Under the pieces are notes generated by a model. That model was not told the DNA's origin. It saw nothing but the letters and a program-made list of their open reading frames with translations, and made no database searches. 64,000 bases of DNA from a virus. The position numbers and the translations under genes were made by a program. Below, one piece after another: positions 5,025 to 63,126 of this stretch (position 1 is its first letter; the number at the start of each line of letters is the position of its first letter). The stretch lies in IMG/VR virus record IMGVR_UViG_3300010384_000002. One strand, 5' to 3'.

Positions 5025-5054
5025 AGAAAGCTCCTTTTATGGTTGAGTATGTAG

Positions 5055-6524
5055 TCACGACTGCGGCTGAATACCGCCGCCCCAAGGCGTGACGTCTTGC
5101 CAATCGGTGGTGTCGTCCTGATCCCAAACACCGCCGCCGTAGAAGCCCCACAGGTACGGTTTAGGCTCCAGTACGCCAGCCAGGGTGGTGACTTCGGCGT
5201 GCACTTCCTCGATGCCGAGCACGGCAATGGTGGTTGGCAGGTTGGCCAGGACCGGGCCCATGGAACGGATCTCCTCGATGCCGAACGAGGCCAGCGCGCC
5301 ACCGAAGTCTTGGAATGCCACGGACCCGGCGTACAGCTCGGTGATTTCGTTGACCATGCCCAGGTAGATGCGGCCCTCGTAATCGGACAGGCGGTGTTCG
5401 CCCAGCGTCATGAAGTCGGGAGGCTGAATCCAGTAGGAGCGCGGCAGCACGGCATTGATCGCGCCTACCGGGTCGCCCTCGGACAGCACGATGTTCGCGC
5501 GGCGCACGTTGCGGCGTGTTTCATCGAACGAGCTGGGGTCGGCCAGCGGCGTGACGTTGGAAATGGTGATGAGCTCGGCCATGCTCACCTCCCAGTTCGT
5601 GGCGCTCGGCTCGACCTCGCCCAGCGCAAACGCATCCAGGCGGCCGCCCACGTCGTTGAACGCCTGCAGCGACATCGTGTGCGTGTGCCCGGTCAGAACG
5701 GTCTGCTTGATCTTCGCGTCGACGGACATACGGCCCAGGAACTGCGGCGGCGCCACGATCACGCCGGCGGCGCGGCTGCGCTCCACCACGGTCATGATCG
5801 CGTCCCAATCAGCCTCCTCGGCCGTGACGGGCTGGATCACGTTGTGCGTCCAGTAGGTGCCATCTTCCATGTGATCGTCGCCGGACAGCTGCGACCCGCC
5901 CAGGATGAAGGTGTTGCGCCAGGGCTCATAGATTTCGACGTTGTGCCCGGTGGCCACCTTGACGGCGTTTTCGATCGCGTACTTGCTCACGCGCGGGCGC
6001 AGGGTTTCCGCGATGATGCGCAGCCGGTAGGCCTCGTCCAGCTCGCCGTTCAGGCGCACGAGGCCAAAGTAGTCCCCCCACACGTCCAGCAGCTCGGCGC
6101 TGGCCGTGCCCAGGTACAGCTGCCGCAGTGCAGTTACGCAATCCTCGCGCGCGTCCTCCAGCACGATGGCAAAGGCATCCAGCACCGAAAACAGGATCGA
6201 GTCGTAGGCGCGCAGCACGTCGCCGTTCGCGTCCGACTGGCGCGCGCGGCCCGCCAAGAGCGTATCGGCGGCGCGCTGGGCCATATCCGCGTTCAGGTAG
6301 ACCACGCGGCAGCCAGCGTCCTCGATCTGGCCGGCCAGATCGGTCATGGTGATGCCCCGTAGCGCGATGGTGGCCAGCTGGGCGCCGGCCTCCGTCCCCA
6401 GCGTGAGCACCCGGTCCGCGATCGCCCAGGTGACGCGGCTCGGGTGGGTAATGCGCAGGGCGATTTGCGCGTTCGGGTTCTTGTCGAACGCGCTGTAGGT
6501 GAAGTCGAGGAGGCGATCAAGCAT
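5055..6524 (-). CDS. Baseplate wedge protein (P2 gpI / Mu gp48-like)
   Basis: 489 aa. The LLDVWGDYFGLVRLNGELDEAYRLRIIAE motif resembles baseplate tail-protein-I families. It follows the baseplate J gene. Confidence 0.6.
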   Translation of the reverse strand: MLDRLLDFTYSAFDKNPNAQIALRITHPSRVTWAIADRVLTLGTEAGAQLATIALRGITMTDLAGQIEDAGCRVVYLNADMAQRAADTLLAGRARQSDANGDVLRAYDSILFSVLDAFAIVLEDAREDCVTALRQLYLGTASAELLDVWGDYFGLVRLNGELDEAYRLRIIAETLRPRVSKYAIENAVKVATGHNVEIYEPWRNTFILGGSQLSGDDHMEDGTYWTHNVIQPVTAEEADWDAIMTVVERSRAAGVIVAPPQFLGRMSVDAKIKQTVLTGHTHTMSLQAFNDVGGRLDAFALGEVEPSATNWEVSMAELITISNVTPLADPSSFDETRRNVRRANIVLSEGDPVGAINAVLPRSYWIQPPDFMTLGEHRLSDYEGRIYLGMVNEITELYAGSVAFQDFGGALASFGIEEIRSMGPVLANLPTTIAVLGIEEVHAEVTTLAGVLEPKPYLWGFYGGGVWDQDDTTDWQDVTPWGGGIQPQS

Positions 6525-7632
6525 TCAGCCACTCCACGGTGAGCGTGCCCAGCTTGAGCACTTCGTTGGCGCCGCACACGATGTTCGTGTTGTTGTCGGC
6601 CACCGCCTTGAGCACGCCGGACAGCGTGAGGGCCGCGTTGGTGAGCTGGGCCACCTGCATCGTCTCGCCCGAGGCAATGGAATCGAATTGCGTGGTCAAG
6701 AGCGTGGCAATCTGGTTCTTCATCGCCGTAGTGCCGGCAAGGCCGGACGCCAGCGTGACGTGCAGCGACACGTTCACGATGCGCTCGGACATCGGCAATA
6801 CGCGCCCTTCGACGCCGCCGGCGACGTAGCCCGGCACGGCGGTGCCGTCCGTGTCGCGGTAGCCGTCCACGATCTTCTGCGCGGCCGCCAGAAGGGCCGC
6901 CGACGGAACGCCCGAGCTGCCGTAGATGTAGACGTCAATCCGGCCGGGCACCTCGCTCGACCCCACGCGCGACACGTACTCGATCAGATCGCCCCGGCTG
7001 TTCTTGATCTGCGCCTGCTTGACGGCGTACCGGACCGAAACGCTGGTGCCGCGCGACAGCGACTGGATGAACTCGGCAAAGCGCGCCTTGCGCTCGGATT
7101 CGGTTTGCCCATCGTTGCCGCTCGTGAATGCCGGGTTGGTCAGCACCGACCCGATCGGGAATGAATAGCCCTCCGTGGACGTGATGGCGTTGGCGCTGAC
7201 GTTGCCCACCGCGCCCTCGGTGGCGCACACGACGATGATGTCGACGGCCGTCGCGCCCACGGGCACCAGCTGGGCGGCCAGCGCGGTGAACTTGAGCGTG
7301 CCGGTGCTGGCGGGCGCCACGAACACCGTGCCGGCCGGGACCGTGAATGCGTCCACGATCGGGCCGCCGAATTGCACGTGCACGGTACCGCGCGCGGCAG
7401 CCGGGCCGACCAGGTCGAAGCCGAAGGCCTTGTAGATAGCCGTCGGGATCGCATCGAGCGTGCCGGCGAGCATACGCTGGTACAGCTCCTCGATTTCGAT
7501 GGCGGGGGCCTCCAGCAGCGTGCGGATGGCCGATCCCACCTCGAAGTCGGTAATACGGGTTTGTGAGGCCCGCACCTGATTGGCCATCGAGGCCGTGATG
7601 GAAATGAAGTCTTTAAGCTGGAACGCGGTCAT
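6517..7632 (-). CDS. Baseplate J-like protein
   Basis: The real start is MTAFQLKDFISITASMANQVRASQTRITDFEVGSAIRTLLEAPAIEIEELY at ATG 7632, in an ATGA overlap with the upstream stop. The track ORF 6517..7725 is over-extended. N-terminal pattern is typical of the Baseplate_J family. Confidence 0.75.
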   Translation of the reverse strand: MTAFQLKDFISITASMANQVRASQTRITDFEVGSAIRTLLEAPAIEIEELYQRMLAGTLDAIPTAIYKAFGFDLVGPAAARGTVHVQFGGPIVDAFTVPAGTVFVAPASTGTLKFTALAAQLVPVGATAVDIIVVCATEGAVGNVSANAITSTEGYSFPIGSVLTNPAFTSGNDGQTESERKARFAEFIQSLSRGTSVSVRYAVKQAQIKNSRGDLIEYVSRVGSSEVPGRIDVYIYGSSGVPSAALLAAAQKIVDGYRDTDGTAVPGYVAGGVEGRVLPMSERIVNVSLHVTLASGLAGTTAMKNQIATLLTTQFDSIASGETMQVAQLTNAALTLSGVLKAVADNNTNIVCGANEVLKLGTLTVEWLNA

Positions 7633-8243
7633 CAGAGCACCGTAGAAAAATTGAGGGGCCGGCCAGAGATGGGCACCACCTGCGACACGATGCGCAGCGC
7701 TGTGCCCTCGATCGTTGCCGTGCACGAGGCCTCGGCCACGCGCGAGTCCTCCAGCAGAGAGGATTTGGCGTACATGGCCGCCAGGGATGCCACGGCCGGG
7801 CTGAGCTTGCCGCCCTTGAGCTGGGGCGCGAAGTTGCCGTATTCCGGGTGGTAGGCCAGCTCACGCTTGACCACCTGCAGCCGGGTCTTGAGCGCTTGGA
7901 GTAGGTTGTCCATGCCGCCCACGATGGCCAGATCGCCACCATCGGCGCCCAGCTGGCCGCGCTCGATCAGGAGGTCGCGCCCGAACACGCCGTCCGGATC
8001 GGCGTCGGCGCTGACGTAGGCGGACTGGGAGGGCACCTTGATCAGGTCCCCGGCCACCAGCACGCCGTCGACGCGCTCGGTCTCGGTCTGGACGATGTAG
8101 GGCGGGCGTAGGCTGTTCAGGGTGGCCAGCTCGACCCAGCGCGCGGCCGTGCCCAACTCGCGCAGCGACAGGCGGCGCAGGTCGTCGCCGTAGCGGATCT
8201 CCGACAGGCGGACGTTCGGGGCGTCTTTCTCAAATGTAGGCAA
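7632..8243 (-). CDS. LysM-like + gp25/GpW-like baseplate protein
   Basis: The C-terminal two thirds of track ORF 7632..8426 has real composition: SEIRYGDDLRRLSLRELGTAARWVELATLN (LysM-like), then GGMDNLLQALKTRLQVVKRELAYHPEYG (gp25/W-like). The proposed TTG start at 8243 has a GGGGG run 6 nt upstream. The exact start is uncertain. Confidence 0.6.
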   Translation of the reverse strand: MPTFEKDAPNVRLSEIRYGDDLRRLSLRELGTAARWVELATLNSLRPPYIVQTETERVDGVLVAGDLIKVPSQSAYVSADADPDGVFGRDLLIERGQLGADGGDLAIVGGMDNLLQALKTRLQVVKRELAYHPEYGNFAPQLKGGKLSPAVASLAAMYAKSSLLEDSRVAEASCTATIEGTALRIVSQVVPISGRPLNFSTVL

Positions 8244-9435
8244 CGGTGGCCCCCATGATCTTCGTTTGGCCAGCGCCGGCCGCCGCGATCGCCGCGTTGA
8301 CGGCTTCGGTCGAGATGGCGGCACCCGCGCCGATCGATTCGAGCAGGCCGGCCGTGGTGGTGGTGCTGGGCGGGTTGAGCAGGTCGACCGACGACAGCGT
8401 GTTGACGGCCGCCTCTGCCTGCGCACTCATCGACACGGGCGAGGCCTGCGCCGGGAACAGGGACGGGAACACGTTCACGTCCGCATACGGCGACGCCGGG
8501 CGGCCGCCAGCCGTCGAGGAGCAGTTCGAGGCGCCATACAGGGCCGAGTAGTCCGGCAGCGTGGTGGGTGCCTTGATCGCGTTGTGCAGGAGGCAGTTCG
8601 CGTTGTTCAGGGCGGCCTTTACCTCGATGAAGTCGCGCTTGACCGACAGCGGCAGCGAGCGCGAGGACGAGGCGATCGCCATCACGTTGGTCGACACCTT
8701 CGTGAGGTCGCGCGCCACCTCCAGCACCGGCGCAAAGGCGCTGCTGGAGACGTTCTTGCCGGCGGCGGCAAGCGCGCGCACGTTGGTGAGCGCCGTGCTG
8801 GTGAGGCCCAAGACCTGCTTGACGCCGCGCGAGAGTGGCCCGAGCGCGGTGGAGATATCGGCCTTGATGTTGGCGGCGAACGTGTTGATCTTGGCGATCG
8901 AGCCGGCCAGCGAGGAGTCCGCGGCGCCGATGTTGGTGCTCTTAGCCGGCTGGATCACGACGTCATCGGCCAGCTTGGTCAGGCTGATCTGGTACTGGGA
9001 CAGCAGCGGCCGCGAGCGGTTGCGGCGCAGGTTGAACACCTGCGGGCCGACCACCCAGGCGAAGTCGTTGAGGCCATCGGAAAAGATCAGCTTGACGCCG
9101 TCCGGGTCCTTGCCCTCCTCCACGGCCTTCGCGCGCAGCTCGTGGTAGCGCTGGAACACGGTCTGGTGCAGCTTCTGGAACTGCTCGAAGCCGTCAGGCA
9201 GGCCGCCGGCGCCCCAGCCGGTGGTGCCGGAAATCGTGCACGTGGCCAGGCCGGGGCCGGCCGTATCCGCCCAGGCGCCGCCGAGAGTCTGGACCACGGC
9301 CATGTTGGACGGCTCGGACCGCACCAGATCCTCGGGGCGAATCGAGAGCGTGAAAACCTCCGTCGGCGCGCCGTGAACAGTGTCGTTCAGGGCGAACGCG
9401 ATGGGGCGAAGTTCGGGGGCTTGGGATCGTGGCAT
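8230..9435 (-). CDS. Tail/baseplate hub-region protein (unassigned)
   Basis: 401-aa ORF between the spike and W-like genes. A GTCGTGAC motif lies 14 nt upstream of ATG 9435. Confidence 0.65.
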   Translation of the reverse strand: MPRSQAPELRPIAFALNDTVHGAPTEVFTLSIRPEDLVRSEPSNMAVVQTLGGAWADTAGPGLATCTISGTTGWGAGGLPDGFEQFQKLHQTVFQRYHELRAKAVEEGKDPDGVKLIFSDGLNDFAWVVGPQVFNLRRNRSRPLLSQYQISLTKLADDVVIQPAKSTNIGAADSSLAGSIAKINTFAANIKADISTALGPLSRGVKQVLGLTSTALTNVRALAAAGKNVSSSAFAPVLEVARDLTKVSTNVMAIASSSRSLPLSVKRDFIEVKAALNNANCLLHNAIKAPTTLPDYSALYGASNCSSTAGGRPASPYADVNVFPSLFPAQASPVSMSAQAEAAVNTLSSVDLLNPPSTTTTAGLLESIGAGAAISTEAVNAAIAAAGAGQTKIMGATVAYI

Positions 9436-9480
9436 GATCCCATCGTGCTGTCACGACCAGGGGCCGGGAAGGCCTCGAAA

Positions 9481-15258: not shown

Positions 15259-15275
15259 ATGAATTGGATGGGAAA

Positions 15276-15578: not shown

Positions 15579-15610
15579 GATGGGGTTCCTTTACTCCATG
15601 GAACCCCATC
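15579..15610 (-). promoter_or_regulatory. 11-bp perfect hairpin abutting start codon 15578
   Basis: GATGGGGTTCC-N10-GGAACCCCATC then ATG. The AAGGAA SD lies in the 3' arm. Confidence 0.7.
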
Positions 15611-15616
15611 ATGGCG

Positions 15617-16168
15617 TCACGACCTGACGTACTGGAGGAGGTAAATCAGGCGTTCCAGGGCGCGCCGTGCGGTGAGGCCAGGGAGCACGCGGCCACCGGC
15701 TTTGTTCCAGAGGCAAAAGGCGTCAGCCGCCGCCTGCAGCTGGCCCCGCGTGGTGAAGCGGGCGACGGATGACACGCCGAAGGCGCCCAGGCCGATGTTA
15801 TAGGCGAGGCTCGTGCACGCGGCCGCGCGCTCGGTCTCCAGCAGGTGCAGCGCCGGGCACTTGGCGTACACCTTGGCCAAGAACAGCACCAGCTTGTGGC
15901 GCAGGCGCAGCTCGGCATATTCGGGCGTCCACACGTCGCCCTCGTTGACGCCCTCGGTTTCGCCGTAGCCGTTCGTCCAGGGCTTGCCGGACAGGCCGCG
16001 CAGGTCGGCCGGGATCTCGGCGCGGCCGGCCATGTAGGCCTTGAGCAGGCCAGCTTTGGCCAAGGCAGCGTAGAGCGGCGAGGCCGGGTCCGGGTAGGCG
16101 CGCAGCGCCAGGCCCTCGGACTGCTTGACGAGCCCCACCAGCAGCTCGAAGGCCTCGGACGGCTTCAT
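15617..16168 (-). CDS. Endolysin, lysozyme (GH24-like) family
   Basis: The real start is MKPSEAFELLVGLVKQSEGLALRAYPDP...WTNGYGETEG at ATG 16168, in an ATGA overlap with the holin stop. It has an E-D-T-like lysozyme motif with an insertion. Confidence 0.7.
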   Translation of the reverse strand: MKPSEAFELLVGLVKQSEGLALRAYPDPASPLYAALAKAGLLKAYMAGRAEIPADLRGLSGKPWTNGYGETEGVNEGDVWTPEYAELRLRHKLVLFLAKVYAKCPALHLLETERAAACTSLAYNIGLGAFGVSSVARFTTRGQLQAAADAFCLWNKAGGRVLPGLTARRALERLIYLLQYVRS

Positions 16169-19967: not shown

Positions 19968-20039
19968 GGAACGAATGATCCCGTCACGACTCAGCGCGGT
20001 GCTATTGACGAGTCCGCGCACTGCGGATTATTGTCAGGT

Positions 20040-26370: not shown

Positions 26371-26422
26371 GGCTGTATCCAGGGCTCGCGCGAATCACAT
26401 TGATCATGGCGTCACGACCATG

Positions 26423-30264: not shown

Positions 30265-30394
30265 GACGCAATCGTGCTGTCACGACTTTTGGCGCGGGGA
30301 AATTTGCAAACGAAAGGAAGGGGTAGCCAAAATTGCCGTAAGGAATCGTGGCTGTGATATTGTTCGATCCCCATGAATTTCACAGGGATAGCGC

Positions 30395-35645: not shown

Positions 35646-35721
35646 TGGAAATTTCCTCCTGATTCACTCACGCTACCGTCACGACCGGGCGGGGGATTGT
35701 TTCAATCAGGACAAAAAATCC

Positions 35722-35751
35722 TTGCGAAACTAACGCTTAGCGTTATATAGT
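35722..35751 (+). promoter_or_regulatory. Sigma70-like promoter with palindromic operator (cassette promoter 1)
   Basis: TTGCGA-N18-TATAGT. The spacer holds the palindrome TAACGC-TTA-GCGTTA (35731-35745). Confidence 0.65.
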
Positions 35752-40929: not shown

Positions 40930-40958
40930 TGGGTGCCTCTGGTAGATCGAGGCACCCA
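40930..40958 (-). promoter_or_regulatory. 10-bp perfect hairpin abutting terminase GTG 40929
   Basis: TGGGTGCCTC-N9-GAGGCACCCA then GTG. The GAGG SD lies in the 3' arm. Confidence 0.7.
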
Positions 40959-41109
40959 GTGTTGCGTCACGACTCTGATTATCAGAGGGAAGTGGCCGAA
41001 CGGACGCTGCAGGGCGGGGCTCGGACCAACTGGGCGAATTTGCGAAATGCCCCTGATTATCACGGACATTTTGCATCTAACCGACGTAACGCCTCCTCTC
41101 CCCTATAAA

Positions 41110-52634: not shown

Positions 52635-52681
52635 GTGCAAACCTCATGGGAGATTGCTCTACCGTACCGTCACGACAGGCG

Positions 52682-52709
52682 AAAAAAAGGCCGGCTTTGC
52701 GGGCCGGCC
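52682..52709 (-). terminator. Intrinsic terminator between the phosphatase and giant genes
   Basis: Minus-sense GGCCGGC-CCGCAAA-GCCGGCC followed by TTTTTTT. Confidence 0.85.
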
Positions 52710-52773
52710 AAAATCCAAAACTAGGGATGTCCTGAAAGAGACAGTGCTATGTTTTGGTCACGACTCCATGCGG

Positions 52774-54367: not shown

Positions 54368-54912
54368 GCGCCCTCGACCCACAGCGAACCATCCGCATCG
54401 ACGTGCAGCGTTTCGCCGCGATGGAAGTCCAGTGTCTTGCCTTCCCTCGTGGTGATCAGGTAGCGGTCGTTGTTCTCGTGGCTGACCGGGCGGCCGTGGA
54501 ACGCGAACGACCAGGGCATGCCGTCGACCACGTTGCCGCCGTTTGCAATGCCGTAGGCCACGAACTGATCGAACGTGTAGGTGGTTTCCGGGGATGGTGG
54601 CGTCTCGGGCGCGGCGGTCTTCGGCTCGGAACCCGGCACGTCGCCCAGGTACTCGAACGAGGTGGCGAACGAAGATGCCGGGATGAACACGGCTTGGCCC
54701 TTCTCGTGCTGGCCCAGCAGGCCCAGGTAGCCGCCGGCCTGCACACCCTGCGACGACGCCCAGGCGGCCGGCACGGTGAACTGTTCGCCGGTGTCGACGA
54801 TCAGCAGCAGCTGGTCGGCGGGCGCCGTGGAATCCGGCACGGCCGGCGGCATGGCGATGGAAAGGATCTGTGCGGCGAGGAGGCGCTGGGTCGAGCGGTA
54901 AATACGGTGCAT
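54364..54912 (-). CDS. Hypothetical protein (first gene of the leftward operon)
   Basis: 182-aa ORF with an AGGAG SD. A GTCGTGAC motif lies 45 nt upstream. Confidence 0.6.
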   Translation of the reverse strand: MHRIYRSTQRLLAAQILSIAMPPAVPDSTAPADQLLLIVDTGEQFTVPAAWASSQGVQAGGYLGLLGQHEKGQAVFIPASSFATSFEYLGDVPGSEPKTAAPETPPSPETTYTFDQFVAYGIANGGNVVDGMPWSFAFHGRPVSHENNDRYLITTREGKTLDFHRGETLHVDADGSLWVEGA

Positions 54913-54997
54913 GGGGTGTTACTCCTGTTGGTGGTGAAGATCAGGAGCAACTTTGGCGTCACGACTTTTGTTCCGGCCGTTTTTGCGTACGCGGACC

Positions 54998-55111: not shown

Positions 55112-55140
55112 TTGACAGATGTGCAGCCAACTCTTAGAGT
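55112..55140 (+). promoter_or_regulatory. Consensus-like sigma70 promoter of the rightward cassette
   Basis: TTGACA-N17-TAGAGT, 32 nt upstream of GTG 55172. Confidence 0.7.
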
Positions 55141-55171: not shown

Positions 55172-55450
55172 GTGACGAACAACACCAATTCTACACTCTA
55201 CGACGTTGCCCAGGTGGGCGAAGATGTCGACCGCATCTGCATCGTGAGCAATGTAACGGGTCGTATCATCGAAAATTCGCCGTTCTTCGATCGCGATGAA
55301 ATTGATGACGCTCGTGCATTCTGCCGCCTCTTGGAAGCCGCCTACAAATACGGCCGCGACGGGAACTATATGGTGGACGAGCACAAGATTGGTCGCCTGA
55401 TCAATGCGGCGATCGTTTCGGGCGCCGCGCGTAAAGGACGTCGGGCATGA
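55172..55450 (+). CDS. Hypothetical protein (first gene of the rightward cassette)
   Basis: GTG 55172 with a GAGGGG SD. The alternative track start is TTG 55157. Confidence 0.55.
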   Translation: MTNNTNSTLYDVAQVGEDVDRICIVSNVTGRIIENSPFFDRDEIDDARAFCRLLEAAYKYGRDGNYMVDEHKIGRLINAAIVSGAARKGRRA

Positions 55451-55917
55451 ACTACCGCGTCCAACCCACCACCTTGCACCACGGGCCCGGCTTCTTCATC
55501 GTGGACGGCGCTACTGATCAACAGGTCCCCGGCACCGGCTTTTACACCTTGGCCGGCGAGCGCGATGCGAGGAATCTGTGCGGGCAGCTGAACGCTGCCT
55601 ATGCAGCTGGCGCGGCAACCGCACCCAAACTGACTGACTCTGCATTGACCGACCTGCGCGCGTTCCTGCGCCTGCGCATCACCACCACACAGATGTACGG
55701 GAAAGACTTCAACCGCTTGGAGCTTGCCCATAACGATGTGTGGGTGCTGCAGGAACTGGTCGAGCGCGTTGCCGCCCGCGAGCAGCAGCTGGTGGCCGCC
55801 GCCCGCGAGGTGATCCGCACCGAACTGTTCTTTCAGGACCACCCGCAGAAGTTCGCCGCACAGAAAGCGCTGCGTGCCGCCCTCGCCCCGTTCGGCGGTA
55901 CCGGGAGCGATGCATGA
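55447..55917 (+). CDS. Hypothetical protein
   Basis: 156-aa ORF with an ATGA overlap. Confidence 0.55.
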   Translation: MNYRVQPTTLHHGPGFFIVDGATDQQVPGTGFYTLAGERDARNLCGQLNAAYAAGAATAPKLTDSALTDLRAFLRLRITTTQMYGKDFNRLELAHNDVWVLQELVERVAAREQQLVAAAREVIRTELFFQDHPQKFAAQKALRAALAPFGGTGSDA

Positions 55918-56411
55918 AGGCTCTGGATACAATGCGCGCCGCGTTCGAGGCGCACTATTTCGCCGGCGGCAACGAGGAAATCGAGCGCAAGGGCGACGGC
56001 TACGCCCTCGTCGGTGCACAGATCGCATGGGATGCATGGCAACAGGCCTATAACGCTGGTGTCAACGCCATGGCTGAATGCGACCAGATCGTGTTCGAGA
56101 ACGCGGCCACGCGCATGCAGCTGCTGGACGATGCATTGACCGCCTACGTTCTATTCGCCGCGACGCGCCGCACGGAGCTGGGCAGCTTGTCGCCGGAAAT
56201 GGAAGTGGTCGACGCGCAAGCCGTAGCCGCGCTGGCCGGCACTGAGCCCCAGGCGCCGGGCATCGTCGCGTGGTTCCGACAGGAGCAACATGGGCAACGG
56301 TTGGCGCGCTGGGTCGAGTGCACACCATTCCAGCCCGGCGCGGTGCGGTTCGCCGCTAAAGCTTTCCCGAGCCTCCGTTCTCTGGCCAAGCCGACCGGGA
56401 GCACTCAATGA
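55914..56411 (+). CDS. Hypothetical protein
   Basis: The real start is MKALDTMRAAFEAHYF at ATG 55914 (ATGA overlap). Confidence 0.55.
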   Translation: MKALDTMRAAFEAHYFAGGNEEIERKGDGYALVGAQIAWDAWQQAYNAGVNAMAECDQIVFENAATRMQLLDDALTAYVLFAATRRTELGSLSPEMEVVDAQAVAALAGTEPQAPGIVAWFRQEQHGQRLARWVECTPFQPGAVRFAAKAFPSLRSLAKPTGSTQ

Positions 56412-56689
56412 GCGCCGGCGCCAAGCGCCCGACGAAGGCGGACCAGTTCGTCGCGGACATGAAGCGCTGCCGTGGCATCGACTTCGCGCGCATCGGCATG
56501 CAGATCGAGGTCGACGGCGACATGGGCACCATCGTCGGGATGAACAGCAGCGCCAACCTTGACGTGCGTTTCGTGAACGAGCTCAAGTACGGCAAGCACA
56601 CGCACAACTGTCACCCGACGTGGGAAACCTGCTACTTCGACGCCGAGGGCAAGGTGATCGCGGACTATCGCACCCGGAGGGCAGCGTGA
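56408..56689 (+). CDS. Hypothetical protein
   Basis: 93-aa ORF. Confidence 0.55.
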   Translation: MSAGAKRPTKADQFVADMKRCRGIDFARIGMQIEVDGDMGTIVGMNSSANLDVRFVNELKYGKHTHNCHPTWETCYFDAEGKVIADYRTRRAA

Positions 56690-57165
56690 GCGCCGTCATC
56701 AGCCCATGCGGCACGTACCGATACATGCTGTCGCGCGCTGGGGATCTGACTGCGACACGCGGCCCCGCCCTGTTCATCATGCTGAACCCGAGCACAGCCG
56801 ATGCATCGCTGGACGATCCGACGATCCGCCGGTGCCGAGGCTTCGCGGAAACGTGGGGCTGCAACGGAATTCAGGTCGTGAACCTGTACGCCATGCGCTC
56901 CACCGATCCGGATGCTTTGTGGAGCCATCCTGACCCGGTCGGTCCGGACAACGACCAGTGGCTGGTCCGCGCGGCAAACGATGCCGAGGAAATCGTGTGC
57001 GCATGGGGCGCCGATGCCAAGCAATCCCGTGTGCTGGAGGTGATGCGCATGCTGACTTTTGGCGGCGCCCGCCTCAAGTGCCTCGGGACCAACAAGAACG
57101 GCTCGCCGCGCCATCCGCTTTACGTGCGTGGCGACCAGCCGCTGATCGATTGGAGCGCGACGTGA
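56686..57165 (+). CDS. DUF1643-like protein
   Basis: GTG 56686 (GTGA overlap). The sequence ISPCGTYRYMLSRA...LFIMLNPSTADASLDDPTIRRCRGFA...VVNLYA matches the DUF1643 pattern. Confidence 0.65.
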   Translation: MSAVISPCGTYRYMLSRAGDLTATRGPALFIMLNPSTADASLDDPTIRRCRGFAETWGCNGIQVVNLYAMRSTDPDALWSHPDPVGPDNDQWLVRAANDAEEIVCAWGADAKQSRVLEVMRMLTFGGARLKCLGTNKNGSPRHPLYVRGDQPLIDWSAT

Positions 57166-57515
57166 ACGAATGGAAGCTCAAGCGCACCGTGCAATGCAAA
57201 AAATGCCCGTGGCGCGCGGATTGCAACCCGCACGAGATCCCAGGCGGCTACTGCGAGACGAAACACCAGAACCTCGCCGGCACGATCGCAAAGGGCGAGG
57301 TGCTGGAGCAGCTGGCCGTCGACGCCGCGTCCGACGTGCGCCACGTGATGACGTGCCATGAGACGGCCGATGCACACTGCGTGGGCTGGCTGGCCAACCA
57401 GCTCGGCCCAGGCAACAACATCATCATGCGCCTGCGGATGCGCAGCTGCACCAACGCCCACAAGCTGCGCCTCGTCGGGGAGCAGCACGAACGATTCGAG
57501 GACACACTGCCATGA
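57162..57515 (+). CDS. DUF6283-like protein
   Basis: GTG 57162 (GTGA overlap). The sequence CKKCPWRADCNPHEIPGGYCETKHQNLAGT...MTCHETADAHCVGWL resembles DUF6283. Confidence 0.55.
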   Translation: MNEWKLKRTVQCKKCPWRADCNPHEIPGGYCETKHQNLAGTIAKGEVLEQLAVDAASDVRHVMTCHETADAHCVGWLANQLGPGNNIIMRLRMRSCTNAHKLRLVGEQHERFEDTLP

Positions 57516-58051
57516 CCACATTGCCGATCCAGACCACCGACGCGGCCCGCGACTTCCTCATCATGTGGATGCGTCGCTACTTCCCGACCGATCGCACGTT
57601 CGGCCCCTACATCACGGAACACCTCGCCGGCGACTTCGCTTTTCAGCTGGCCAACGCGCTGGCGGTGCCAGTCAGCGGAAGCGCCGGCGATGCACTGGAA
57701 GCCGCCGCCCAGCTGGTGATCCAGCGCACCTCCGTTCCGCGTGACCTTCTCGGGCCCGCGACCGCGCAGATGAAGGCGAAGGCCGCCGCCGGTGAGCAGC
57801 TGGCCGCCGCCATCCGCTCCTTGCGGCCCGCTGCCAGCGGGAGCGACGGAACAGCCGCTGCTGGGGCGGCAGATCAGGCGCCCATCGAGATTACTCCAGG
57901 CATGATCCAGGCGGGCATCGAGGCGCTGGCATTGGTGGCGCAAACAGCTCCGAATGCCGATCTTGCCGTGACCACGATTTACCGTGCGATGCACGCGGCC
58001 AGGGCCTCCAGACTTACCGACATTGCCATCCGAGTAAAGGAACACCCATGA
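57512..58051 (+). CDS. Hypothetical protein
   Basis: 179-aa ORF. Confidence 0.55.
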   Translation: MTTLPIQTTDAARDFLIMWMRRYFPTDRTFGPYITEHLAGDFAFQLANALAVPVSGSAGDALEAAAQLVIQRTSVPRDLLGPATAQMKAKAAAGEQLAAAIRSLRPAASGSDGTAAAGAADQAPIEITPGMIQAGIEALALVAQTAPNADLAVTTIYRAMHAARASRLTDIAIRVKEHP

Positions 58052-58227
58052 GCATTCAAGACATCATGCAACACGCAAACGCGCAGCGCACCGAGGCCAA
58101 GGCCCTGCTGGGCCAGATCACCGTCGACCAGGCCGTGGCTGATCGCATCGTTGATTGCATCATCGGCGCGACCGTGCTGGAAGTCACGGCAATGATGCGC
58201 GACGCCATGCGGGATGCCGCCAAATGA
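58048..58227 (+). CDS. 59-aa hypothetical protein (not in ORF track)
   Basis: Hand translation: MSIQDIMQHANAQRTEAKALLGQITVDQAVADRIVDCIIGATVLEVTAMMRDAMRDAAK. ATGA overlaps at both ends. Confidence 0.55.
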   Translation: MSIQDIMQHANAQRTEAKALLGQITVDQAVADRIVDCIIGATVLEVTAMMRDAMRDAAK

Positions 58228-58793
58228 TGGGGCAACGCATCGGCTACGTGCGCGTGAGCACGACCGACCAGAACACCGACCGCCAGCTGGAAAACATCGT
58301 CCTCGATAGGAAGTTCGAGGACAAAGTGTCCGGCAAGGACACCGAGCGGCCGCAGCTGCAGGAAATGCTGGCGTACGCGCGCGAGGGCGACGTGGTTATC
58401 GTGCACAGCATGGACCGGCTGGCGCGCAACGTCGACGACCTGCGCAAGCTGGTCAAGAGCATGAACGCCCGCAAGATCGTGGTCCAGTTCATGAAAGAGG
58501 GCCTGACGTTCACCGGCGACGACTCGCCCATGTCGAACCTGCTGCTGACCATGCTCGGCGCGGTGGCCGAGTTCGAGCGCGCGCTGATCAACGAGCGCCA
58601 GCGCGAGGGCATCGCGATCGCCAAGACGAAGGGCGTCTACAAGGGCCGCAAACCGGCGCTGACGGAGGCCCAGGCGGCCGAGGCGCGCCGGCTGATCGAC
58701 GTCGACAAGGTGTCCAAGGCCGAGGTGGCGCGCCAGCTGGGCGTCAGCCGCTCGACGCTGTACGCGCACCTCAACGCGGCCGGGGAGGCGTGA
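58224..58793 (+). CDS. Serine recombinase (resolvase/invertase family)
   Basis: MMGQRIGYVRVSTTDQNTDRQ...GDVVIVHSMDRLARN...AEFERALINERQREGIA... plus a C-terminal HTH (VARQLGVSRSTLYAHL). Confidence 0.85.
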   Translation: MMGQRIGYVRVSTTDQNTDRQLENIVLDRKFEDKVSGKDTERPQLQEMLAYAREGDVVIVHSMDRLARNVDDLRKLVKSMNARKIVVQFMKEGLTFTGDDSPMSNLLLTMLGAVAEFERALINERQREGIAIAKTKGVYKGRKPALTEAQAAEARRLIDVDKVSKAEVARQLGVSRSTLYAHLNAAGEA

Positions 58794-59167
58794 CCATGCG
58801 CGTCGTTCTCTACGCCCAAGACTTCGAGCCCATCACCATCATCGAGCTGGAGCCGTGGGCCGTCGACTACCTGCGCGAGCATCGAAGCGTGCGCCTGGCG
58901 GTGGAGACGCCCCCGCCCACCAGCCCGTGCAACGGCCTCTCGAACTACATGACATTCGGGCCGGACATGCGGCAGGTGGAAATCAGGGCTGAGACCATCC
59001 GCTTCTACGGCCGCGACGAACACATGATGCTGTTCACCCGTAACGAGGCGTCGGCCATGCTGCTCAAGGCGGCATTCCTGCCCGGCCAGCGTGTGGCGCT
59101 CCAGGCTGCCGAGCGCGACGCCTTCGCGCGCGGATTCCTATCGGCGCTGGGCCGGATCGGGCGATGA
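58790..59167 (+). CDS. Hypothetical protein
   Basis: 125-aa ORF with a GTGA overlap. Confidence 0.5.
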   Translation: MTMRVVLYAQDFEPITIIELEPWAVDYLREHRSVRLAVETPPPTSPCNGLSNYMTFGPDMRQVEIRAETIRFYGRDEHMMLFTRNEASAMLLKAAFLPGQRVALQAAERDAFARGFLSALGRIGR

Positions 59168-59237
59168 ATTCGCGTTCTTCCCCTTGATTTTCACGGGATT
59201 TCCTTTATTATTCCTACAATTTTCATATTAAAAGGGG

Positions 59238-60044
59238 ATGATTTTGAACTACCTCCGCAAGAAGGCCAAGGTGTACGTTGTGGCGAACACCAAAGGCGGC
59301 GCCGGCAAGACCACGACGACCGTCAACCTGTCCATTCCGCGCGCCATGAAAGGCTTGAAAGTTCTCGACGTGAACGGCGACAAACAGCGCACGCTGAACA
59401 TCGCCATGACCAACCGATCCAATGCCGGCGTGACGCCCACACTCTCCTGCGCCCACTATCCGGACGGCCCCGAGCTGCGCAATCAGGTGATGCATCAGGC
59501 GGATATGTATGACGAAATCTGGATCGACTGCGGCGGCGAGGACAGCCCGTCCATGCGAGCAGCGTTCATGCTGGCCGATACGATCGTCATCCCCTTCCAG
59601 CCGCGCAGCTTCGACGTGTGGGCCATGGAGGACGTCTGCAAACTGCTGGTGGAAGTCATGAGCATGCGCGATGCGCCGCGCGTGGTGGCCTTCATCAACC
59701 AGGCCGACCCAGGCGAGGATGCGTCGGACAACCGCGAGGCTGCCGAATACGTCGACGCCTTGAACAAGAACATGGGCCTGAACATCGAACTGCTGCCCAC
59801 GCCTCTGCGCCGCCGCAAGGCGTTCTCGAACGCCAGCGGACTGGGCCTGTCGGTGCTGGAGCCGCTTCCCAAGGACATGAAACGTCCGCTCGACAAAAAG
59901 GCCATCGACGAGCTGAACAACCTGCTGGCGCGCGTGATTGGCGAAGATGCCCGCATTCAGCCAGCTGCCGGCTTGGCCCTGACGGATACGGTGCCGGAAG
60001 ATTACAAGGCCCCTGCCGCTGGCGCCGCCGTGGAGGCGCAATAA
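59238..60044 (+). CDS. parA: ParA/ParF-type partition ATPase
   Basis: Deviant Walker A: VVANTKGGAGKTTTTVNL. The start is ATG 59238 or GTG 59271 (AAGAAGG SD). Confidence 0.8.
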   Translation: MILNYLRKKAKVYVVANTKGGAGKTTTTVNLSIPRAMKGLKVLDVNGDKQRTLNIAMTNRSNAGVTPTLSCAHYPDGPELRNQVMHQADMYDEIWIDCGGEDSPSMRAAFMLADTIVIPFQPRSFDVWAMEDVCKLLVEVMSMRDAPRVVAFINQADPGEDASDNREAAEYVDALNKNMGLNIELLPTPLRRRKAFSNASGLGLSVLEPLPKDMKRPLDKKAIDELNNLLARVIGEDARIQPAAGLALTDTVPEDYKAPAAGAAVEAQ

Positions 60045-60045
60045 C

Positions 60046-60357
60046 ATGGCCATCACCCCACCATCCCCACCGGCGCTCACTGCCGAGGAAAAGGAACGCG
60101 AGAAAAAGGTCAGTGCGTGGATCAATTCAGCGCCCGACGGGCGCGGCACCGGCAAGCCCGAGCCCAAGCGCGTCATGAAGGGCAAGCAGGCGCAGATTTC
60201 CCACGCCCTGCCACCCGCGCTGCTGGACGAGCTCGACAAGTTCGCGGAGCGTAACGACCTCAAGCGCGCGAACGCCATCAACATCGCCATCCGCCAGATG
60301 CTCCGTCAGGGCATCGTGCTGAACCTGCTGCCGGCCGACCAGGGGGACGGATCGTGA
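60046..60357 (+). CDS. Ribbon-helix-helix (ParG/CopG-like) centromere-binding partner
   Basis: 103 aa, directly after parA. C-terminus: QISHALPPALLDELDKFAERNDLKRANAINIAIRQML. Confidence 0.6.
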   Translation: MAITPPSPPALTAEEKEREKKVSAWINSAPDGRGTGKPEPKRVMKGKQAQISHALPPALLDELDKFAERNDLKRANAINIAIRQMLRQGIVLNLLPADQGDGS

Positions 60358-60554
60358 GCGCCGTCGATCTGGTGCGCGCGGCCCAGCTGCTGGAGGAGGC
60401 AAACAAACTTTCGCCCAAGGATCTGGCCGCGCGCGCCACGTTCGTGATCAAAATGCATGGCGCACCGAGCACACCCGAATATGCCGCCGTAATCGAGGCA
60501 GCGCTGCGCTTTATTGCCGTTGTCACGGGCGAACGTCCCCAGGTGCTGCCATGA
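60354..60554 (+). CDS. Hypothetical protein
   Basis: 66-aa ORF with a GTGA overlap. Confidence 0.45.
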   Translation: MSAVDLVRAAQLLEEANKLSPKDLAARATFVIKMHGAPSTPEYAAVIEAALRFIAVVTGERPQVLP

Positions 60555-60970
60555 AGGTGGCCGAGCTCGAAGGCGAGGCGCTGGCCGAGTGGGTGGCGCG
60601 TGCCGCAGGCTACCCAGTCCAGAAGGATAGCGGTACTCTGACCGTAGAGTTGCCGTTCAATCCGTGGGTTGCATCGTTCGGCCCGCACGGCTTCCGCCCC
60701 GATCTGAATTGGAGCCAGGGCGGGCCGCTGCTCGATCGGTTCGAGGTGTGCATCGGACGCGGCGAGTCGTCCGAATACGAAGTGATCCGCGAGCCCTTCG
60801 ACGGAGATTCCCCGCGCCCAGGCCGCCGCATTGATCGGAGATACGCTATCGCGCGCCTTTTCGGCCGCGAGGACAAGCACCAGGGCGACACCGCGCTGAT
60901 TGCCGGCTGCCGCGCGATCGTGGCCAGCGTCTACGGCGCCGAAGTACCAGACCAACAACAGGAGGGATGA
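60551..60970 (+). CDS. DUF2591-like phage protein
   Basis: MKVAELEGEALAEWVARAAGY...DLNWSQGGPLLDRF resembles DUF2591 (NinX-like). Confidence 0.55.
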   Translation: MKVAELEGEALAEWVARAAGYPVQKDSGTLTVELPFNPWVASFGPHGFRPDLNWSQGGPLLDRFEVCIGRGESSEYEVIREPFDGDSPRPGRRIDRRYAIARLFGREDKHQGDTALIAGCRAIVASVYGAEVPDQQQEG

Positions 60971-61404
60971 TGAGCAACGAGCACCTGAACCTCGGCGCGC
61001 TGGCGCCGCACGAGCTGGCTGTGCACGTCGCGGCCGCAATGGCTGCACAGGCCGCCAGCGGCGCCCAGCTGGACCCGCTGCAGGCGGTGATCTACGAGGC
61101 CGCGAAGCGCTACGCCGAACAGACGGCCACCGGCGCGCGCCATCGCATGGTCGTTATCAGCCCAAACGACAACTCAGACTACTGCTACCTCGACGTCGAC
61201 GAGGAAACGGCGATGAAGCTGTTCAATGAAGGCGAGGACGCCCACCTGTATCAAGAGCAGGCGTTGAAGGTCACAAATATCGACTTCGCCGGCGGCTTCA
61301 TGCTCTGGCGGAACATGGGCAACGACATGGCCGATATCCTCGGCCAGCGCGGCCTGCCGCCCGAGCTGGCGGACCTGCTGCGCGGCCCACAAGATAAGGG
61401 GTGA
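60967..61404 (+). CDS. Hypothetical protein
   Basis: 145-aa ORF, the last gene of the rightward cassette. Confidence 0.55.
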   Translation: MMSNEHLNLGALAPHELAVHVAAAMAAQAASGAQLDPLQAVIYEAAKRYAEQTATGARHRMVVISPNDNSDYCYLDVDEETAMKLFNEGEDAHLYQEQALKVTNIDFAGGFMLWRNMGNDMADILGQRGLPPELADLLRGPQDKG

Positions 61405-61566: not shown

Positions 61567-61826
61567 CACCGCACCCACTCGGCCAGCAGCTTCGTGTCCG
61601 CCTCGCCGCGCGACTTGATCCCCAGCGTCTCGCTGTGACCGTGGCATTTGCCGCCGTCGATGAAGCCGGCCGCCACGCACTCGCCGTTCTGCTTATAGAG
61701 GCGATTCCAGTCCCGATGGCCGAAGCGGATGCGTTCGCAAGCCTCGGCCATGCGATCGTGGTCAACCATGCGCGGGAACACGAAGATTTCCTCTTTCCCT
61801 GCCAGGGACATGACGATGTATTTCAC
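61566..61826 (-). CDS. Hypothetical protein
   Basis: GTG 61826 (GTGA overlap): VKYIVMSLAGKEEIFVFPRMVDHDRMAEACERIRF... Confidence 0.5.
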   Translation of the reverse strand: MKYIVMSLAGKEEIFVFPRMVDHDRMAEACERIRFGHRDWNRLYKQNGECVAAGFIDGGKCHGHSETLGIKSRGEADTKLLAEWVR

Positions 61827-62881
61827 GCGGCACCGCCTTTCAAGCAGTACTCGAACATCGCCTTGGCCTGCTCGGCATTGAACAGGTTCGTGCCCGATGG
61901 CATGCCCCACTGCGCTGCATACGTGCGGCTGAACGACACACCCGCGTCCGGATAGAAGTCCACGGGCAGCTTCCAGCCGAGGAAGCGGTTGACCATGGCG
62001 TCCACATCGACCGTGGCGGCCGCTGGCGCCTGCTTATCGGCCCGGTAGCGATCTTCCGCCAGCAGGAAGGCGGCGTAGCCCCATGCCACGCCCAGCGCCT
62101 TCTCATAGGCGTACTGCTGGCCGAGCGTTTCCGAGAAGTCGTCGATGTCGCTGCACGACTCCTCGCCTCGCACGCTGAACCCGTTCTTGAACGTGATTTC
62201 GCACACGGTGGTGCGGCCGTCCGGGCGGATCTCGTGCGTCACCGAGCGGAACATGGCCTCCAGGGCCGCGCGCGCGACCTTCTTTGGCAGCTGCGGCTGC
62301 ACCAGCGCCGGCGGCATCAGGCGCGGGATGATGCGCTCGACGCCATCCGCGTCACGCACCAGCGCGTCGCCGGCCACGGGCTCGCGGCCGCCCAGTTTTA
62401 CGTGATCGTGCTCCAGCTCCTCGGCCGGTGCGCGGTCATAGGTGATGGCATAGGCCAGGATGCCGCCCACCTTCGGCGGCGGTGCCTGATACACCTCGCG
62501 GCGCACGCTCTTGACGCGATCGAGCACGGTGGAGGGCATCGGCGCGGCAGCGGCCGGCGCCACGGGCTCCTCATGCGTGCGGATCGGCCAGGCCGGATGC
62601 TCGCTATCGTCCGCCGGCGAGGCGCGGTGGTACGCGCCCAGGAACAGCGCCTCGGGCACGATCTTGGCGCGGCCTTCGGTGTCCTGCACGAGGTAGTCGC
62701 CGGGCTTCGGCTTGTGCTGCGCCTGCCAGCCCTCGGGCGTGGGCAACGTGATGTTGTGGCCCTGCAGGCGCAGCGCGCGCCACCCGAGCGGGTTATAGGC
62801 GGATGCGACGCCATCGAGCACGTCGATGATCTGCGCGGCGTACACGATGGCGGTGGAGTTGGTCGGGTGGTAGAGCTGCAT
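61823..62881 (-). CDS. N4 Gp49/Sf6 gp66-family domain protein
   Basis: TTVCEITFKNGFSVRGEESCSDIDDFSETLGQQYAYEKALGVAWGYAAFLLAE matches that family pattern. Its start lies at the foot of a 12-bp hairpin. Confidence 0.6.
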   Translation of the reverse strand: MQLYHPTNSTAIVYAAQIIDVLDGVASAYNPLGWRALRLQGHNITLPTPEGWQAQHKPKPGDYLVQDTEGRAKIVPEALFLGAYHRASPADDSEHPAWPIRTHEEPVAPAAAAPMPSTVLDRVKSVRREVYQAPPPKVGGILAYAITYDRAPAEELEHDHVKLGGREPVAGDALVRDADGVERIIPRLMPPALVQPQLPKKVARAALEAMFRSVTHEIRPDGRTTVCEITFKNGFSVRGEESCSDIDDFSETLGQQYAYEKALGVAWGYAAFLLAEDRYRADKQAPAAATVDVDAMVNRFLGWKLPVDFYPDAGVSFSRTYAAQWGMPSGTNLFNAEQAKAMFEYCLKGGAA

Positions 62882-62919
62882 GCTGGAGGCCTTTGACAGT
62901 GATAATCAAGGCCTCCAGC
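62882..62919 (-). promoter_or_regulatory. 12-bp perfect hairpin abutting start codon 62881
   Basis: GCTGGAGGCCTT-N14-AAGGCCTCCAGC then ATG. The loop carries TGATTATCA. Confidence 0.7.
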
Positions 62920-62925
62920 GTGGCG

Positions 62926-63126
62926 TCACGACTTTTGCCAGGGATGGCTTTTCGCTTCCTCTTTCACGATGGCCATGGCCTCGGCCGCCGACTTGCCGTT
63001 GATCCGGATCAGCTGCTTCATGCGCGTGACCATCCACGCCACCTCATCGGCTGGGATGCCGGCCAGCTCGCCCAGCATCGCCACGCCGTTGTATGTGCCG
63101 TCGCCATTGGCCCAGCGCTCGATCAT
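62926..63126 (-). CDS. Hypothetical protein
   Basis: 66-aa ORF. Its stop TGA lies inside a GTCGTGAC motif. Confidence 0.5.
   Translation of the reverse strand: MIERWANGDGTYNGVAMLGELAGIPADEVAWMVTRMKQLIRINGKSAAEAMAIVKEEAKSHPWQKS

Follow-up and report, generated by a model that had tools for sequence, protein, structure and literature searches.

The -35 element of bacterial promoters becomes dispensable when additional contacts are made immediately upstream of the -10 element, as in extended -10 (TGn) promoters and in the middle/late promoters of Thermus phage P23-45 (gp39/gp76) and of phage phiEco32 (sigma factor gp36, TAATGTATA), and phages exploit this -35-independent class after disabling the -35-dependent promoters of their hosts. 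In phage T4, late promoters consist of TATAAATA at -13 to -6, read by gp55 together with gp33 and the gp45 clamp. T4 middle promoters carry a MotA box at -30 and a sigma70 -10 element, and are used through sigma appropriation by AsiA and MotA. In the Thermus phage Lalka27a, 16 late promoters defined by RNA-seq and by the 5' ends of short RNAs contain a TAGGGT -10 element and a conserved C at -25, with no -35 element (bioRxiv 10.64898/2026.04.20.719267). This phage encodes neither a sigma factor nor a polymerase, its transcripts are mostly leaderless, its late promoters are densely distributed through the structural genes without antitermination, and its authors inferred that a phage factor retargets the host polymerase (bioRxiv 10.64898/2026.04.20.719267). 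In this study, we sought to characterize an oriented octamer, GTCGTGAC, that recurs in a 64,000-nucleotide stretch of the IMG/VR virus record IMGVR_UViG_3300010384_000002 (hereafter the window). Our favoured explanation, to which we give a probability of about 0.78, is that each copy would be the core of a middle or late promoter specific to a family of phages.

The window corresponds to record positions 732-64,731 of a 95,435-bp Joint Genome Institute (JGI) metagenome contig (3300010231, Ga0136216_1000100), which we followed beyond the window as far as record position 83,520. With a G+C content of 64.9%, it belongs to a myovirus, and its baseplate, tape-measure-like, sheath, capsid, protease, portal and terminase genes all lie on the minus strand. 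These minus-strand operons are broken up by three plus-strand cassettes, the products of which include an XRE regulator and a set composed of DUF1643, DUF6283, serine resolvase, ParA and NinX proteins. The portal protein shares just 50-57% identity with those of a GenBank family of 86-95-kb phages comprising nine isolates: Pseudomonas phages Dolphis, Jeremy and Touem01, Bordetella phage PHB04, Aeromonas phage ST4, Escherichia phage ECML-606-1, Enterobacter phage phiT5282EW, Yersinia phage fHe-Yen8-01 and Morganella phage Mecenats66. Identity with the portal of the Thermus Lalka phages is about 35%. Portal homologues were also found at 51 more loci in IMG/VR. No Rfam family matched the window.

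An exact search for GTCGTGAC detected 12 copies on the minus strand, where about 1.5 are expected per strand, and two on the plus strand (1182 and 17525). Dinucleotide-preserving shuffles contained 3.0 ± 1.7 copies on the two strands combined, with a maximum of 9, and none of 100 shuffles reached the 14 copies of the window. Every minus-strand copy sits in a gap or at the end of a gene. The conserved sequence extends beyond the octamer, the full motif being GTCGTGAC-NNN-A-NNN-T: all 12 minus-strand copies fit GTCGTGACNNNANNNT with no mismatch, and each of the two plus-strand octamers falls short of this 16-mer by two positions. Since octamers with one mismatch occur at chance level (73 seen, 73.1 expected) and a search of either strand with a relaxed pattern, NNCGTGA[CT]NNNANNNT, adds no site to these 12, the signal is all-or-none, with ten invariant positions across 16 nt. 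Two further copies, both full and on the same strand, are present in the 18.8-kb extension of the contig, so that 82.8 kb contain 14 minus-strand copies, all of them full 16-mers, and two plus-strand copies, neither of them full.

The original prediction had reported the 12 minus-strand octamers, and our search reproduces all their positions, as well as the listed start codons and the distances of 14-45 nt that separate them from the motif. The TGA inside the motif was said to be the stop codon of the upstream open reading frame (ORF) at 5055, 15617 and 62926, which agrees with the ends of these ORFs. The longer cores described for subsets of the copies are visible in the extracted sites, a terminator does follow the copy at 52757 (at 52709-52689), and the motif is indeed absent from the plus-strand cassettes. 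The claim of a single copy in the opposite orientation (1182) has to be amended by the second one at 17525. Beyond this second copy, the features added here are a -10-like downstream half, putative leaderless starts at 9435, 19967 and 30264, and conservation across the family.

We evaluated this conservation in complete phage genomes and in the IMG/VR loci. Dolphis (63.7% G+C) contains 11 octamers, 10 of them on the structural strand and 8 of them full 16-mers, which precede the protease, baseplate J, lysis, giant protein and terminase genes. All 11 octamers of PHB04 (65.5% G+C) are on the structural strand, 10 being full 16-mers, and the four found in the Escherichia coli phage ECML-606-1 (56% G+C) are all full and on that strand. 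At most of the 51 IMG/VR loci, with G+C contents of 48-66%, the octamer is confined to the portal-coding strand and located at orthologous junctions. We pooled 95 unique octamer sites from the window, Dolphis and the IMG/VR loci. Among the 89 on the main strand, 75 are full 16-mers and 14 lack the A/T pair; none of the six on the opposite strand is full. The number of pooled octamers without the A/T pair is about that expected by chance. An alignment of the region upstream of the protease gene in 10 phages revealed an invariant island, TCGTGAC..A...T......ATG, amid diverged sequence, in which the bases between the fixed positions vary freely. Altered octamers occupy equivalent places in divergent IMG/VR subgroups (TACGTGAC, ATCGTGAC and GTCGTGAT), and ATCGTGAT and GTGAT...TAAT-type variants do so in Mecenats66 (49% G+C). 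It had been stated beforehand that the finding would be refuted if relatives lacked the motif or carried it equally often on the two strands; the relatives instead favour it, with a bias towards the structural strand and positions at orthologous junctions. A literature search on the octamer, the phage names and leaderless late promoters found no description of the motif and brought to light a single useful analogue, the Lalka27a promoters, and the genome paper of Mecenats66 does not discuss promoters.

These data bear on the possibility that the copies result from chance or base composition, or that they form an oriented signal unrelated to transcription (Chi- or KOPS-like polarity, packaging, methylation or restriction). 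An oriented octamer limited to one strand does recall Chi and KOPS, but polarity signals occur in coding sequence, from which the copies of the motif are excluded. The copies are without exception intergenic and extended by the A/T pair, the count is attained by no shuffle, and the motif is kept at orthologous junctions across phages of 48-66% G+C. Furthermore, the counts in Dolphis, PHB04, ECML-606-1 and IMG/VR are the opposite of what equal frequency on the two strands, or within and between genes, would give. We regard this explanation as scarcely credible.

The downstream half of the motif gives clues regarding its function. The A at +11 and the T at +15, present in all 12 sites of the window, are spaced like positions 2 and 6 of a -10 hexamer, i.e., A-11 and T-7, the pair of bases flipped out and bound in pockets by factors of the sigma70 family. 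With the T set as -7, the octamer occupies -22 to -15 and is followed by two variable bases and then by N-A-N-N-N-T. The -10 halves in the window include cACGAT, cATGAT and gATCAT, among others. Preferences for G (-6), C (-1) and A (+1) are visible in the pooled logo too. Upstream of the octamer, a logo of 73 sites has no column above 0.18 bits from -50 to -1, and thus no -35 element. The original prediction had already described this flank as unconserved and held it to speak against an ordinary bipartite sigma70 promoter, which the flat logo bears out; a scanner for the sigma70 consensus calls none of the motif sites.

The position of start codons relative to the motif is also constrained. 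Measured from the first G of the octamer at 87 pooled unique sites, an ATG is found at +22 in 24 sites and at +23 in 16, where about one per offset is expected by chance. Of these 40 ATGs, located 7-8 nt past the invariant T, 38 open ORFs of at least 50 codons, which represents 44% of the 87 sites. Other offsets have 0-5 ATGs each, with two exceptions: a peak at +14, which is a trivial effect of the fixed T, and a broad set between +38 and +57 led by a Shine-Dalgarno (SD) sequence. Independently annotated starts fall at +22/+23 for the portal (39176), the protease (20517), gp005 (4718) and gp025 (25654) of PHB04, and for gene 29 (27248) of ECML-606-1. In the window, the ATGs at 9435 and 30264 (+22) and at 19967 (+23) leave 14-15 nt between octamer and ATG, too short for an SD sequence. 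The mRNAs of these three genes would be leaderless and begin at the A of the ATG, which would place the start site 7-8 nt beyond the -10 T, a distance typical of bacterial polymerases. The motif is most likely a middle or late promoter with its predicted start at +22/+23.

Alternatively, the motif could act in RNA, either as a processing site or as an SD-independent translation signal located 14 nt before the AUG in a polycistronic mRNA. This would account for the many downstream genes that lack an SD sequence and have their ATG at a fixed distance, and a mazEF pair is present in Dolphis. Production of leaderless mRNAs by MazF has been proposed, a view that is contested. However, more than half of the sites are followed by a gene with its own SD sequence at a variable distance of 26-70 nt, the site at 52764 precedes no ORF, and the divergent operon heads are out of reach of read-through. 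In addition, an A-N3-T pair with free bases between is the signature of DNA melting and not of a pairing or cleavage motif. A role in RNA is therefore very improbable.

Three other types of promoter were compared with the motif and rejected. If the octamer were the -10 element of an extracytoplasmic function (ECF)-type promoter and the invariant A its start, the invariant T and the spacing of the ATG would be left unexplained, and there would be no -35 element. In a classical TGn extended -10 promoter the TG lies at -15/-14; here it falls at -18/-17, and positions -14/-13 are biased towards G/C instead of TG. Finally, the 16-mer contains no GG-N10-GC as required for a sigma54 promoter (TGGCAC-N5-TTGC).

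The arrangement of the copies along the genome is consistent with promoters. They are found 2-12 kb apart through the structural, packaging and accessory genes, and two of them (26418 and 52676) immediately follow terminator hairpins. Where a minus-strand operon begins opposite a plus-strand cassette, its head carries the motif in all three cases (30286, 35685 and 54965), and these operons need their own promoter since read-through cannot reach them. Sigma70-like promoters lie at the head of two of the three plus-strand cassettes. Among the recombination and replication genes in the part of the contig seen (RecT, PDDEXK nuclease, AAA protein, SSB), the motif is absent; these genes start at a divergent control region, where all three of the sigma70-consensus matches in 12.7 kb are located. 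Early operons use TTGACx-17-TAxxAT promoters. This organization fits a cascade in which host-type promoters would drive early operons and the motif would drive middle and late operons.

In such a promoter, a holoenzyme of the sigma70 family would melt the -10-like half, and a phage-encoded factor would read the octamer, standing in for the -35 contact either on the principle of sigma appropriation in T4 or by acting itself as a dedicated sigma factor of the phage. This factor would be produced from the early operon under ordinary sigma70 promoters. Transcription of the structural, packaging and accessory operons on one strand would then start anew from about 14 promoters of this kind, 2-12 kb apart. 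Leaderless mRNAs with AUG at their 5' end would come from about 40% of the promoters across the family and from 3 of 12 in the window. The motif is missing from the accessory cassettes of the plus strand (ParA, resolvase, XRE regulator and others), two of the three being under putative host-type promoters.

At many sites where the gene is led by an SD sequence, inverted repeats were observed. On the minus strand at 15570-15607, 40920-40957, 54904-54949 and 62872-62916, the six bases from the -10 T to the start open an inverted repeat, the other arm of which covers the SD sequence. Examples are tcctct...AAGGAGGA and gggtgcCTC...GAGGCACCC, and the same pattern is found in PHB04, Dolphis and several IMG/VR loci, with stems of -10 to -21 kcal/mol. 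Over 47 sites, the 6 nt upstream of the start add a mean of -4.15 kcal/mol, compared with -2.57 for shuffled hexamers, and 17 of the 47 sites gain 5 kcal/mol or more, compared with 9 in the control. Such an SD-covering hairpin could form only in read-through RNA, which could make translation depend on initiation at the promoter belonging to that gene. The equivalent position in Dolphis and Mecenats66 is frequently occupied by a hairpin and a T-run adjoining the ATG.

Another explanation is that the octamer is the site of a phage regulator without being a promoter determinant, for example a repressor operator or a loading site for a Q-like antiterminator. Its placement between -35 and -10 is that of the Q-binding element of phage lambda, its outer GTC..GAC is a partial palindrome, and the inverted repeats described above overlap several start sites. 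The candidate reader proteins described below are also predicted to bind zinc, like lambda Q and P2 Ogr. Nevertheless, no other conserved promoter-like element lies nearby, although the operon heads require one; the fixed 2-bp gap makes the octamer and the -10 half a single unit; the dense promoters are preceded by terminators, which makes antitermination needless; and Pfam detected no Q or Ogr domain in the 61 hypothetical proteins of PHB04. We consider this explanation improbable. Among the three roles put forward in the original prediction, the phage-specific middle or late promoter core is the one supported, and the binding site of a phage regulator is compatible with a promoter. An RNA-processing or antitermination site is unsupported, because the distance to SD-led starts is variable and the operon heads need a promoter.

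The late promoters of Lalka27a are the closest known analogue, with a shared strategy between distant relatives. In both cases, many promoters are located among structural genes, no -35 element is present, no phage sigma factor or polymerase is recognizable, and leaderless transcripts occur, as the majority in Lalka27a and as a prediction for part of the sites in the family studied here. The elements differ, since TAGGGT and a C at -25 are replaced here by N-A-NNN-T and an invariant 8-bp block, with an unconserved -25 column. The hosts are Proteobacteria instead of Thermus, and leaderless mRNAs are rare in Proteobacteria. In contrast to Lalka27a, for which 5' ends are available, the start sites proposed here are read from sequence alone.

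Similarities with the T4 systems were also examined. Like T4 late promoters, which are used by the host core polymerase after phage reprogramming, the motif promoters would be restricted to the -10 region, lack a -35 element and be used repeatedly before structural genes. Unlike them, the element is G+C-rich and bipartite, reaches -22 and differs in sequence from TATAAATA. No homologues of gp55, gp33 or gp45 were detected in the window, in the extensions or in the PHB04 scans. The logic that we propose is that of T4 middle promoters: a sigma70 -10 element is kept, and a short asymmetric box read by a phage protein as a monomer would replace the -35 contact. Here, however, the box lies directly against the -10 element, at -22 to -15, whereas the MotA box is centred at -30, and the -10 half is much weaker. 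Neither MotA nor AsiA domains were detected in the hypothetical proteins of PHB04 or in the proteins of the window. Extended -10 promoters differ in the position of the TG and in having two invariant bases instead of eight, and no homologues of gp39, gp76 or gp36 were identified. Because of the TG at -18/-17, the box abutting the hexamer and the lack of homologous factors, the putative motif promoters belong to none of the T4 late, T4 middle or extended -10 classes. Their unusual features would be the invariant 8-bp spacer element, its strict conservation across hosts and the frequent leaderless starts predicted in phages of Proteobacteria.

Recognition of the octamer by the host alone would involve the holoenzyme with its primary sigma factor, with an alternative one (of the ECF, sigma28 or sigma32 type) or with an activator conserved among the hosts. 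Neither a sigma factor nor an RNA polymerase of the phage was detected in the window or among the hypothetical proteins of PHB04, the invariant A and T suit the pockets of sigma70, and the motif is identical in phages of E. coli, Pseudomonas and Bordetella, hosts with a highly conserved RNA polymerase. Against this stand the lack of a -35 element and a position -12 that is not T, with which sigma70 alone should bind poorly, and the lack of a match to the sigma54, ECF (which needs an AAC-type -35), sigma28 or sigma32 consensus sequences. The altered octamers of divergent subgroups (TACGTGAC, ATCGTGAC and ATCGTGAT) fit a co-evolving phage reader better, and the plain TTGACx-17-TAxxAT early promoters imply two promoter classes and a temporal switch. 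Recognition by the host alone therefore appears unlikely. Because the -10 half is too weak for sigma70 alone, the -35 element is missing and the octamer drifts in divergent subgroups, specificity is likely supplied by some phage-encoded factor.

We therefore sought candidate readers. Pfam and PHROG scans of about 40 window proteins matched only the XRE helix-turn-helix (HTH) protein, serine resolvase, ParA, NUDIX and DUF families. No RNA polymerase is annotated in the complete genomes of Dolphis, PHB04, ECML-606-1 and Mecenats66, and the window likewise yielded none, although its giant 1727-aa protein, which matches no Pfam or PHROG family, could conceivably be a cryptic polymerase. A comparison of core genomes picked out PHB04 gp072, gp071, gp068 and gp104, none of which has an informative Pfam or PHROG match. 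The 173-aa gp072 has eight conserved Cys and one conserved His, and the adjoining gp071 (97 aa) is zinc-ribbon-like. The gp072 family includes more than 220 homologues with no Pfam domain; among GenBank phages it is found in exactly the nine family members, and it is absent from Lalka phages. In the phage studied here, the homologues of gp072 and gp071 lie outside the window on the minus strand, at 13094-13657 and 12693-13097 of locus L062 (contig ~75,523-76,487), in an early-type operon with putative sigma70 promoters at its head. The next motif promoter, which would drive an HU/TF1-like gene, lies directly downstream. It is a tentative proposal, less likely to be right than wrong, that the gp072/gp071 pair reads the octamer. 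In its full form, which we hold equally doubtful, a zinc-binding gp072 family with a novel fold, perhaps with gp071, would read the -22 to -15 element, replace the -35 contact and let sigma70 open the DNA at A-11/T-7, giving leaderless portal, protease, baseplate and giant-protein mRNAs throughout a large and widely distributed family of proteobacterial phages. Leaderless expression is regarded as exceptional in Gram-negative bacteria.

Several points weigh against the promoter explanation or its proposed reader. Every step of it is deduced from sequence, and the source contig is known to position 83,520 of 95,435 only. Position -12 is mostly C or G and the -10 element is very weak by sigma70 standards, which makes recognition by host sigma70 an assumption. 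The inverted repeats that overlap several predicted start sites may be operators instead. No sigma factor, polymerase or known late activator was recognized by Pfam and PHROG in the roughly 40 window proteins, and precomputed Pfam hits of the contig extensions include no sigma, RNA polymerase, MotA-, AsiA-, Q- or Ogr-like protein. Likewise, the 61 hypothetical proteins of PHB04 match 14 Pfam families, none of them related to sigma, Q, Ogr or MotA, and there is no sigma-family hit among the best 25 of the 68 PHROG families that they match. With the confident AlphaFold model of gp072 (pLDDT 84.5), Foldseek retrieved nothing from the PDB at E <= 0.001, and profile searches against PDB sequences returned only noise from Cys-rich proteins. 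The association of gp072 with the motif consists of its co-distribution with the phage family and its gene position, and Mecenats66, which has both gp072 and gp071, contains no exact GTCGTGAC but only variants.

If confirmed, the motif would provide a precise transcription signal for a family whose genes are mostly annotated as hypothetical in GenBank, including nine isolates from E. coli, Enterobacter, Yersinia, Morganella, Aeromonas, Pseudomonas and Bordetella and dozens of metagenomic genomes. A strict signal that is portable over 48-66% G+C, with no recognizable sigma or polymerase gene, points to a specificity factor, and the late-gene switch of host RNA polymerase is now directly testable in E. 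coli with ECML-606-1. Leaderless starts, if real, would make these phages a rare natural model of how abundant proteins are translated from leaderless mRNAs in Proteobacteria, and a gp072 reader would represent a previously undescribed way of retargeting bacterial RNA polymerase. The motif could also serve as a tight infection-dependent promoter part, and it corrects start-codon calls, such as those of the terminase (40929) and of the gp014-like gene (19967).

Table 1. Candidate promoters and terminator in the window (window coordinates; start sites and leaderless mRNAs are predictions).
Feature	Coordinates	Strand	Sequence	Predicted start site	Start codon and leader	Gene and context
Motif promoter 1	5046..5061	-	GTCGTGACtacAtacT	~5039	ATG 5024; 15-nt leader with AAGGAG	Baseplate-module gene 4542-5024; motif TGA ends ORF 5055-6524; orthologous site in ECML-606-1 at 13769
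Motif promoter 2	9442..9457	-	GTCGTGACagcAcgaT		ATG 9435 exactly at +22; predicted leaderless	Gene 8230-9435, homologue of PHB04 gp005, virion/baseplate protein; PHB04 orthologue start (4718) likewise at +22
Motif promoter 3	15608..15623	-	GTCGTGACgccAtgaT	~15601	ATG 15578	Inverted repeat across -6 to +20; motif TGA terminates ORF 15617-16252
Motif promoter 4	19975..19990	-	GTCGTGACgggAtcaT		ATG 19967 at +23; predicted leaderless	Gene ~19134-19967, homologue of PHB04 gp014; annotated start of ECML-606-1 orthologue (27248) at +22
Motif promoter 5	26403..26418	-	GTCGTGACgccAtgaT	~26396	ATG 26370	Abuts terminator-like hairpin and T-run beginning at ~26448
Motif promoter 6	30271..30286	-	GTCGTGACagcAcgaT		ATG 30264 exactly at +22; predicted leaderless	Prohead protease 29383-30264; operon head at divergent junction
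Motif promoter 7	35670..35685	-	GTCGTGACggtAgcgT	~35663	ATG 35645; 18-nt leader with AGGAGG	Portal 33870-35645; operon head at divergent junction
Motif promoter 8	40958..40973	-	GTCGTGACgcaAcacT	~40951	GTG 40929	Large terminase; inverted repeat with 9-bp stem over start site and SD
Motif promoter 9	52661..52676	-	GTCGTGACggtAcggT	~52654	ATG 52634	Giant protein (1725-1727 aa); directly past terminator 52709-52689; orthologues in Dolphis (gp117) and relative locus L006 in leaderless arrangement, ATG at +22
Motif promoter 10	52749..52764	-	GTCGTGACcaaAacaT	~52742		~60-nt stretch to terminator, no ORF
Motif promoter 11	54950..54965	-	GTCGTGACgccAaagT	~54943	ATG 54912	Operon head at divergent junction
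Motif promoter 12	62917..62932	-	GTCGTGACgccAcgcT	~62910	ATG 62881	Gene 61823-62881 with N4 gp49-like domain; motif TGA ends ORF 62926-63126
Intrinsic terminator	52689..52709	-	GGCCGGC-loop-GCCGGCC then T7			Separates tandem promoters 10 and 9
Sigma70-consensus promoter	55112..55140	+	TTGACA-17-TAGAGT (10/12 matches)			Heads cassette 55447-61404; no motif
Sigma70-like promoter	35722..35751	+	TTGCGA-18-TATAGT			Heads cassette 35786-37924

Analysis of individual sites led to further observations. The transcript predicted from motif promoter 10 (window 52681-52742, minus strand) is about 62 nt long, folds at -20.7 kcal/mol (z = -2.6) and has no Rfam match; a small RNA is a possible product. PHB04 has similar tandem sites (25935 and 25677) ahead of a giant helicase gene. 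The longest terminase ORF (38248-41076, minus strand) starts at 41076 and would enclose the motif site at 40958-40973. The motif, the SD sequence and the close relative L052 all indicate GTG 40929 as the true terminase start. Start codons of GenBank relatives, e.g., PHB04 gp014 and gp066, could likewise be revised to the ATG at +22/+23.

The giant ORF (47457-52640, minus strand) encodes 1727 aa, or 1725 aa from the ATG at 52634 in the JGI annotation, and matches no Pfam or PHROG family. Its homologues are Dolphis gp117, annotated as an ADP-ribosyltransferase, a 2257-aa protein of ECML-606-1 and, weakly, PHB04 gp027. It is probably a polyvalent protein delivered with the virion, like Lvh of the Lalka phages.

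The plus-strand cassette at 55447-61404, under putative sigma70-like promoters, encodes the DUF1643 and DUF6283 proteins, a serine resolvase (58155-58793), a ParA-type ATPase (59238-60044) and NinX. The association of ParA with a resolvase suggests maintenance as a plasmid-prophage. Relatives have integrases in place of ParA and resolvase, and gp072 homologues are found on contigs of about 93 kb in Paraburkholderia assemblies. A small plus-strand cassette between the protease and portal operons encodes the XRE-family HTH protein (31061-31465), which may be a repressor or the antitoxin of a toxin-antitoxin pair. In the extension, two gene-free stretches of 1.46 kb and 1.2 kb (L062 8540-10001 and 10690-11901; contig ~71,370-72,831 and ~73,520-74,731) flank a lone plus-strand gene of 229 aa limited to this phage and sibling contigs, and could correspond to an origin, non-coding RNAs or decayed genes. 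Finally, two overlapping minus-strand ORFs (15276-15578 and 14803-15339) are located between the tail tube and tape-measure-like genes, the usual site of a tail-chaperone pair expressed through programmed frameshifting.

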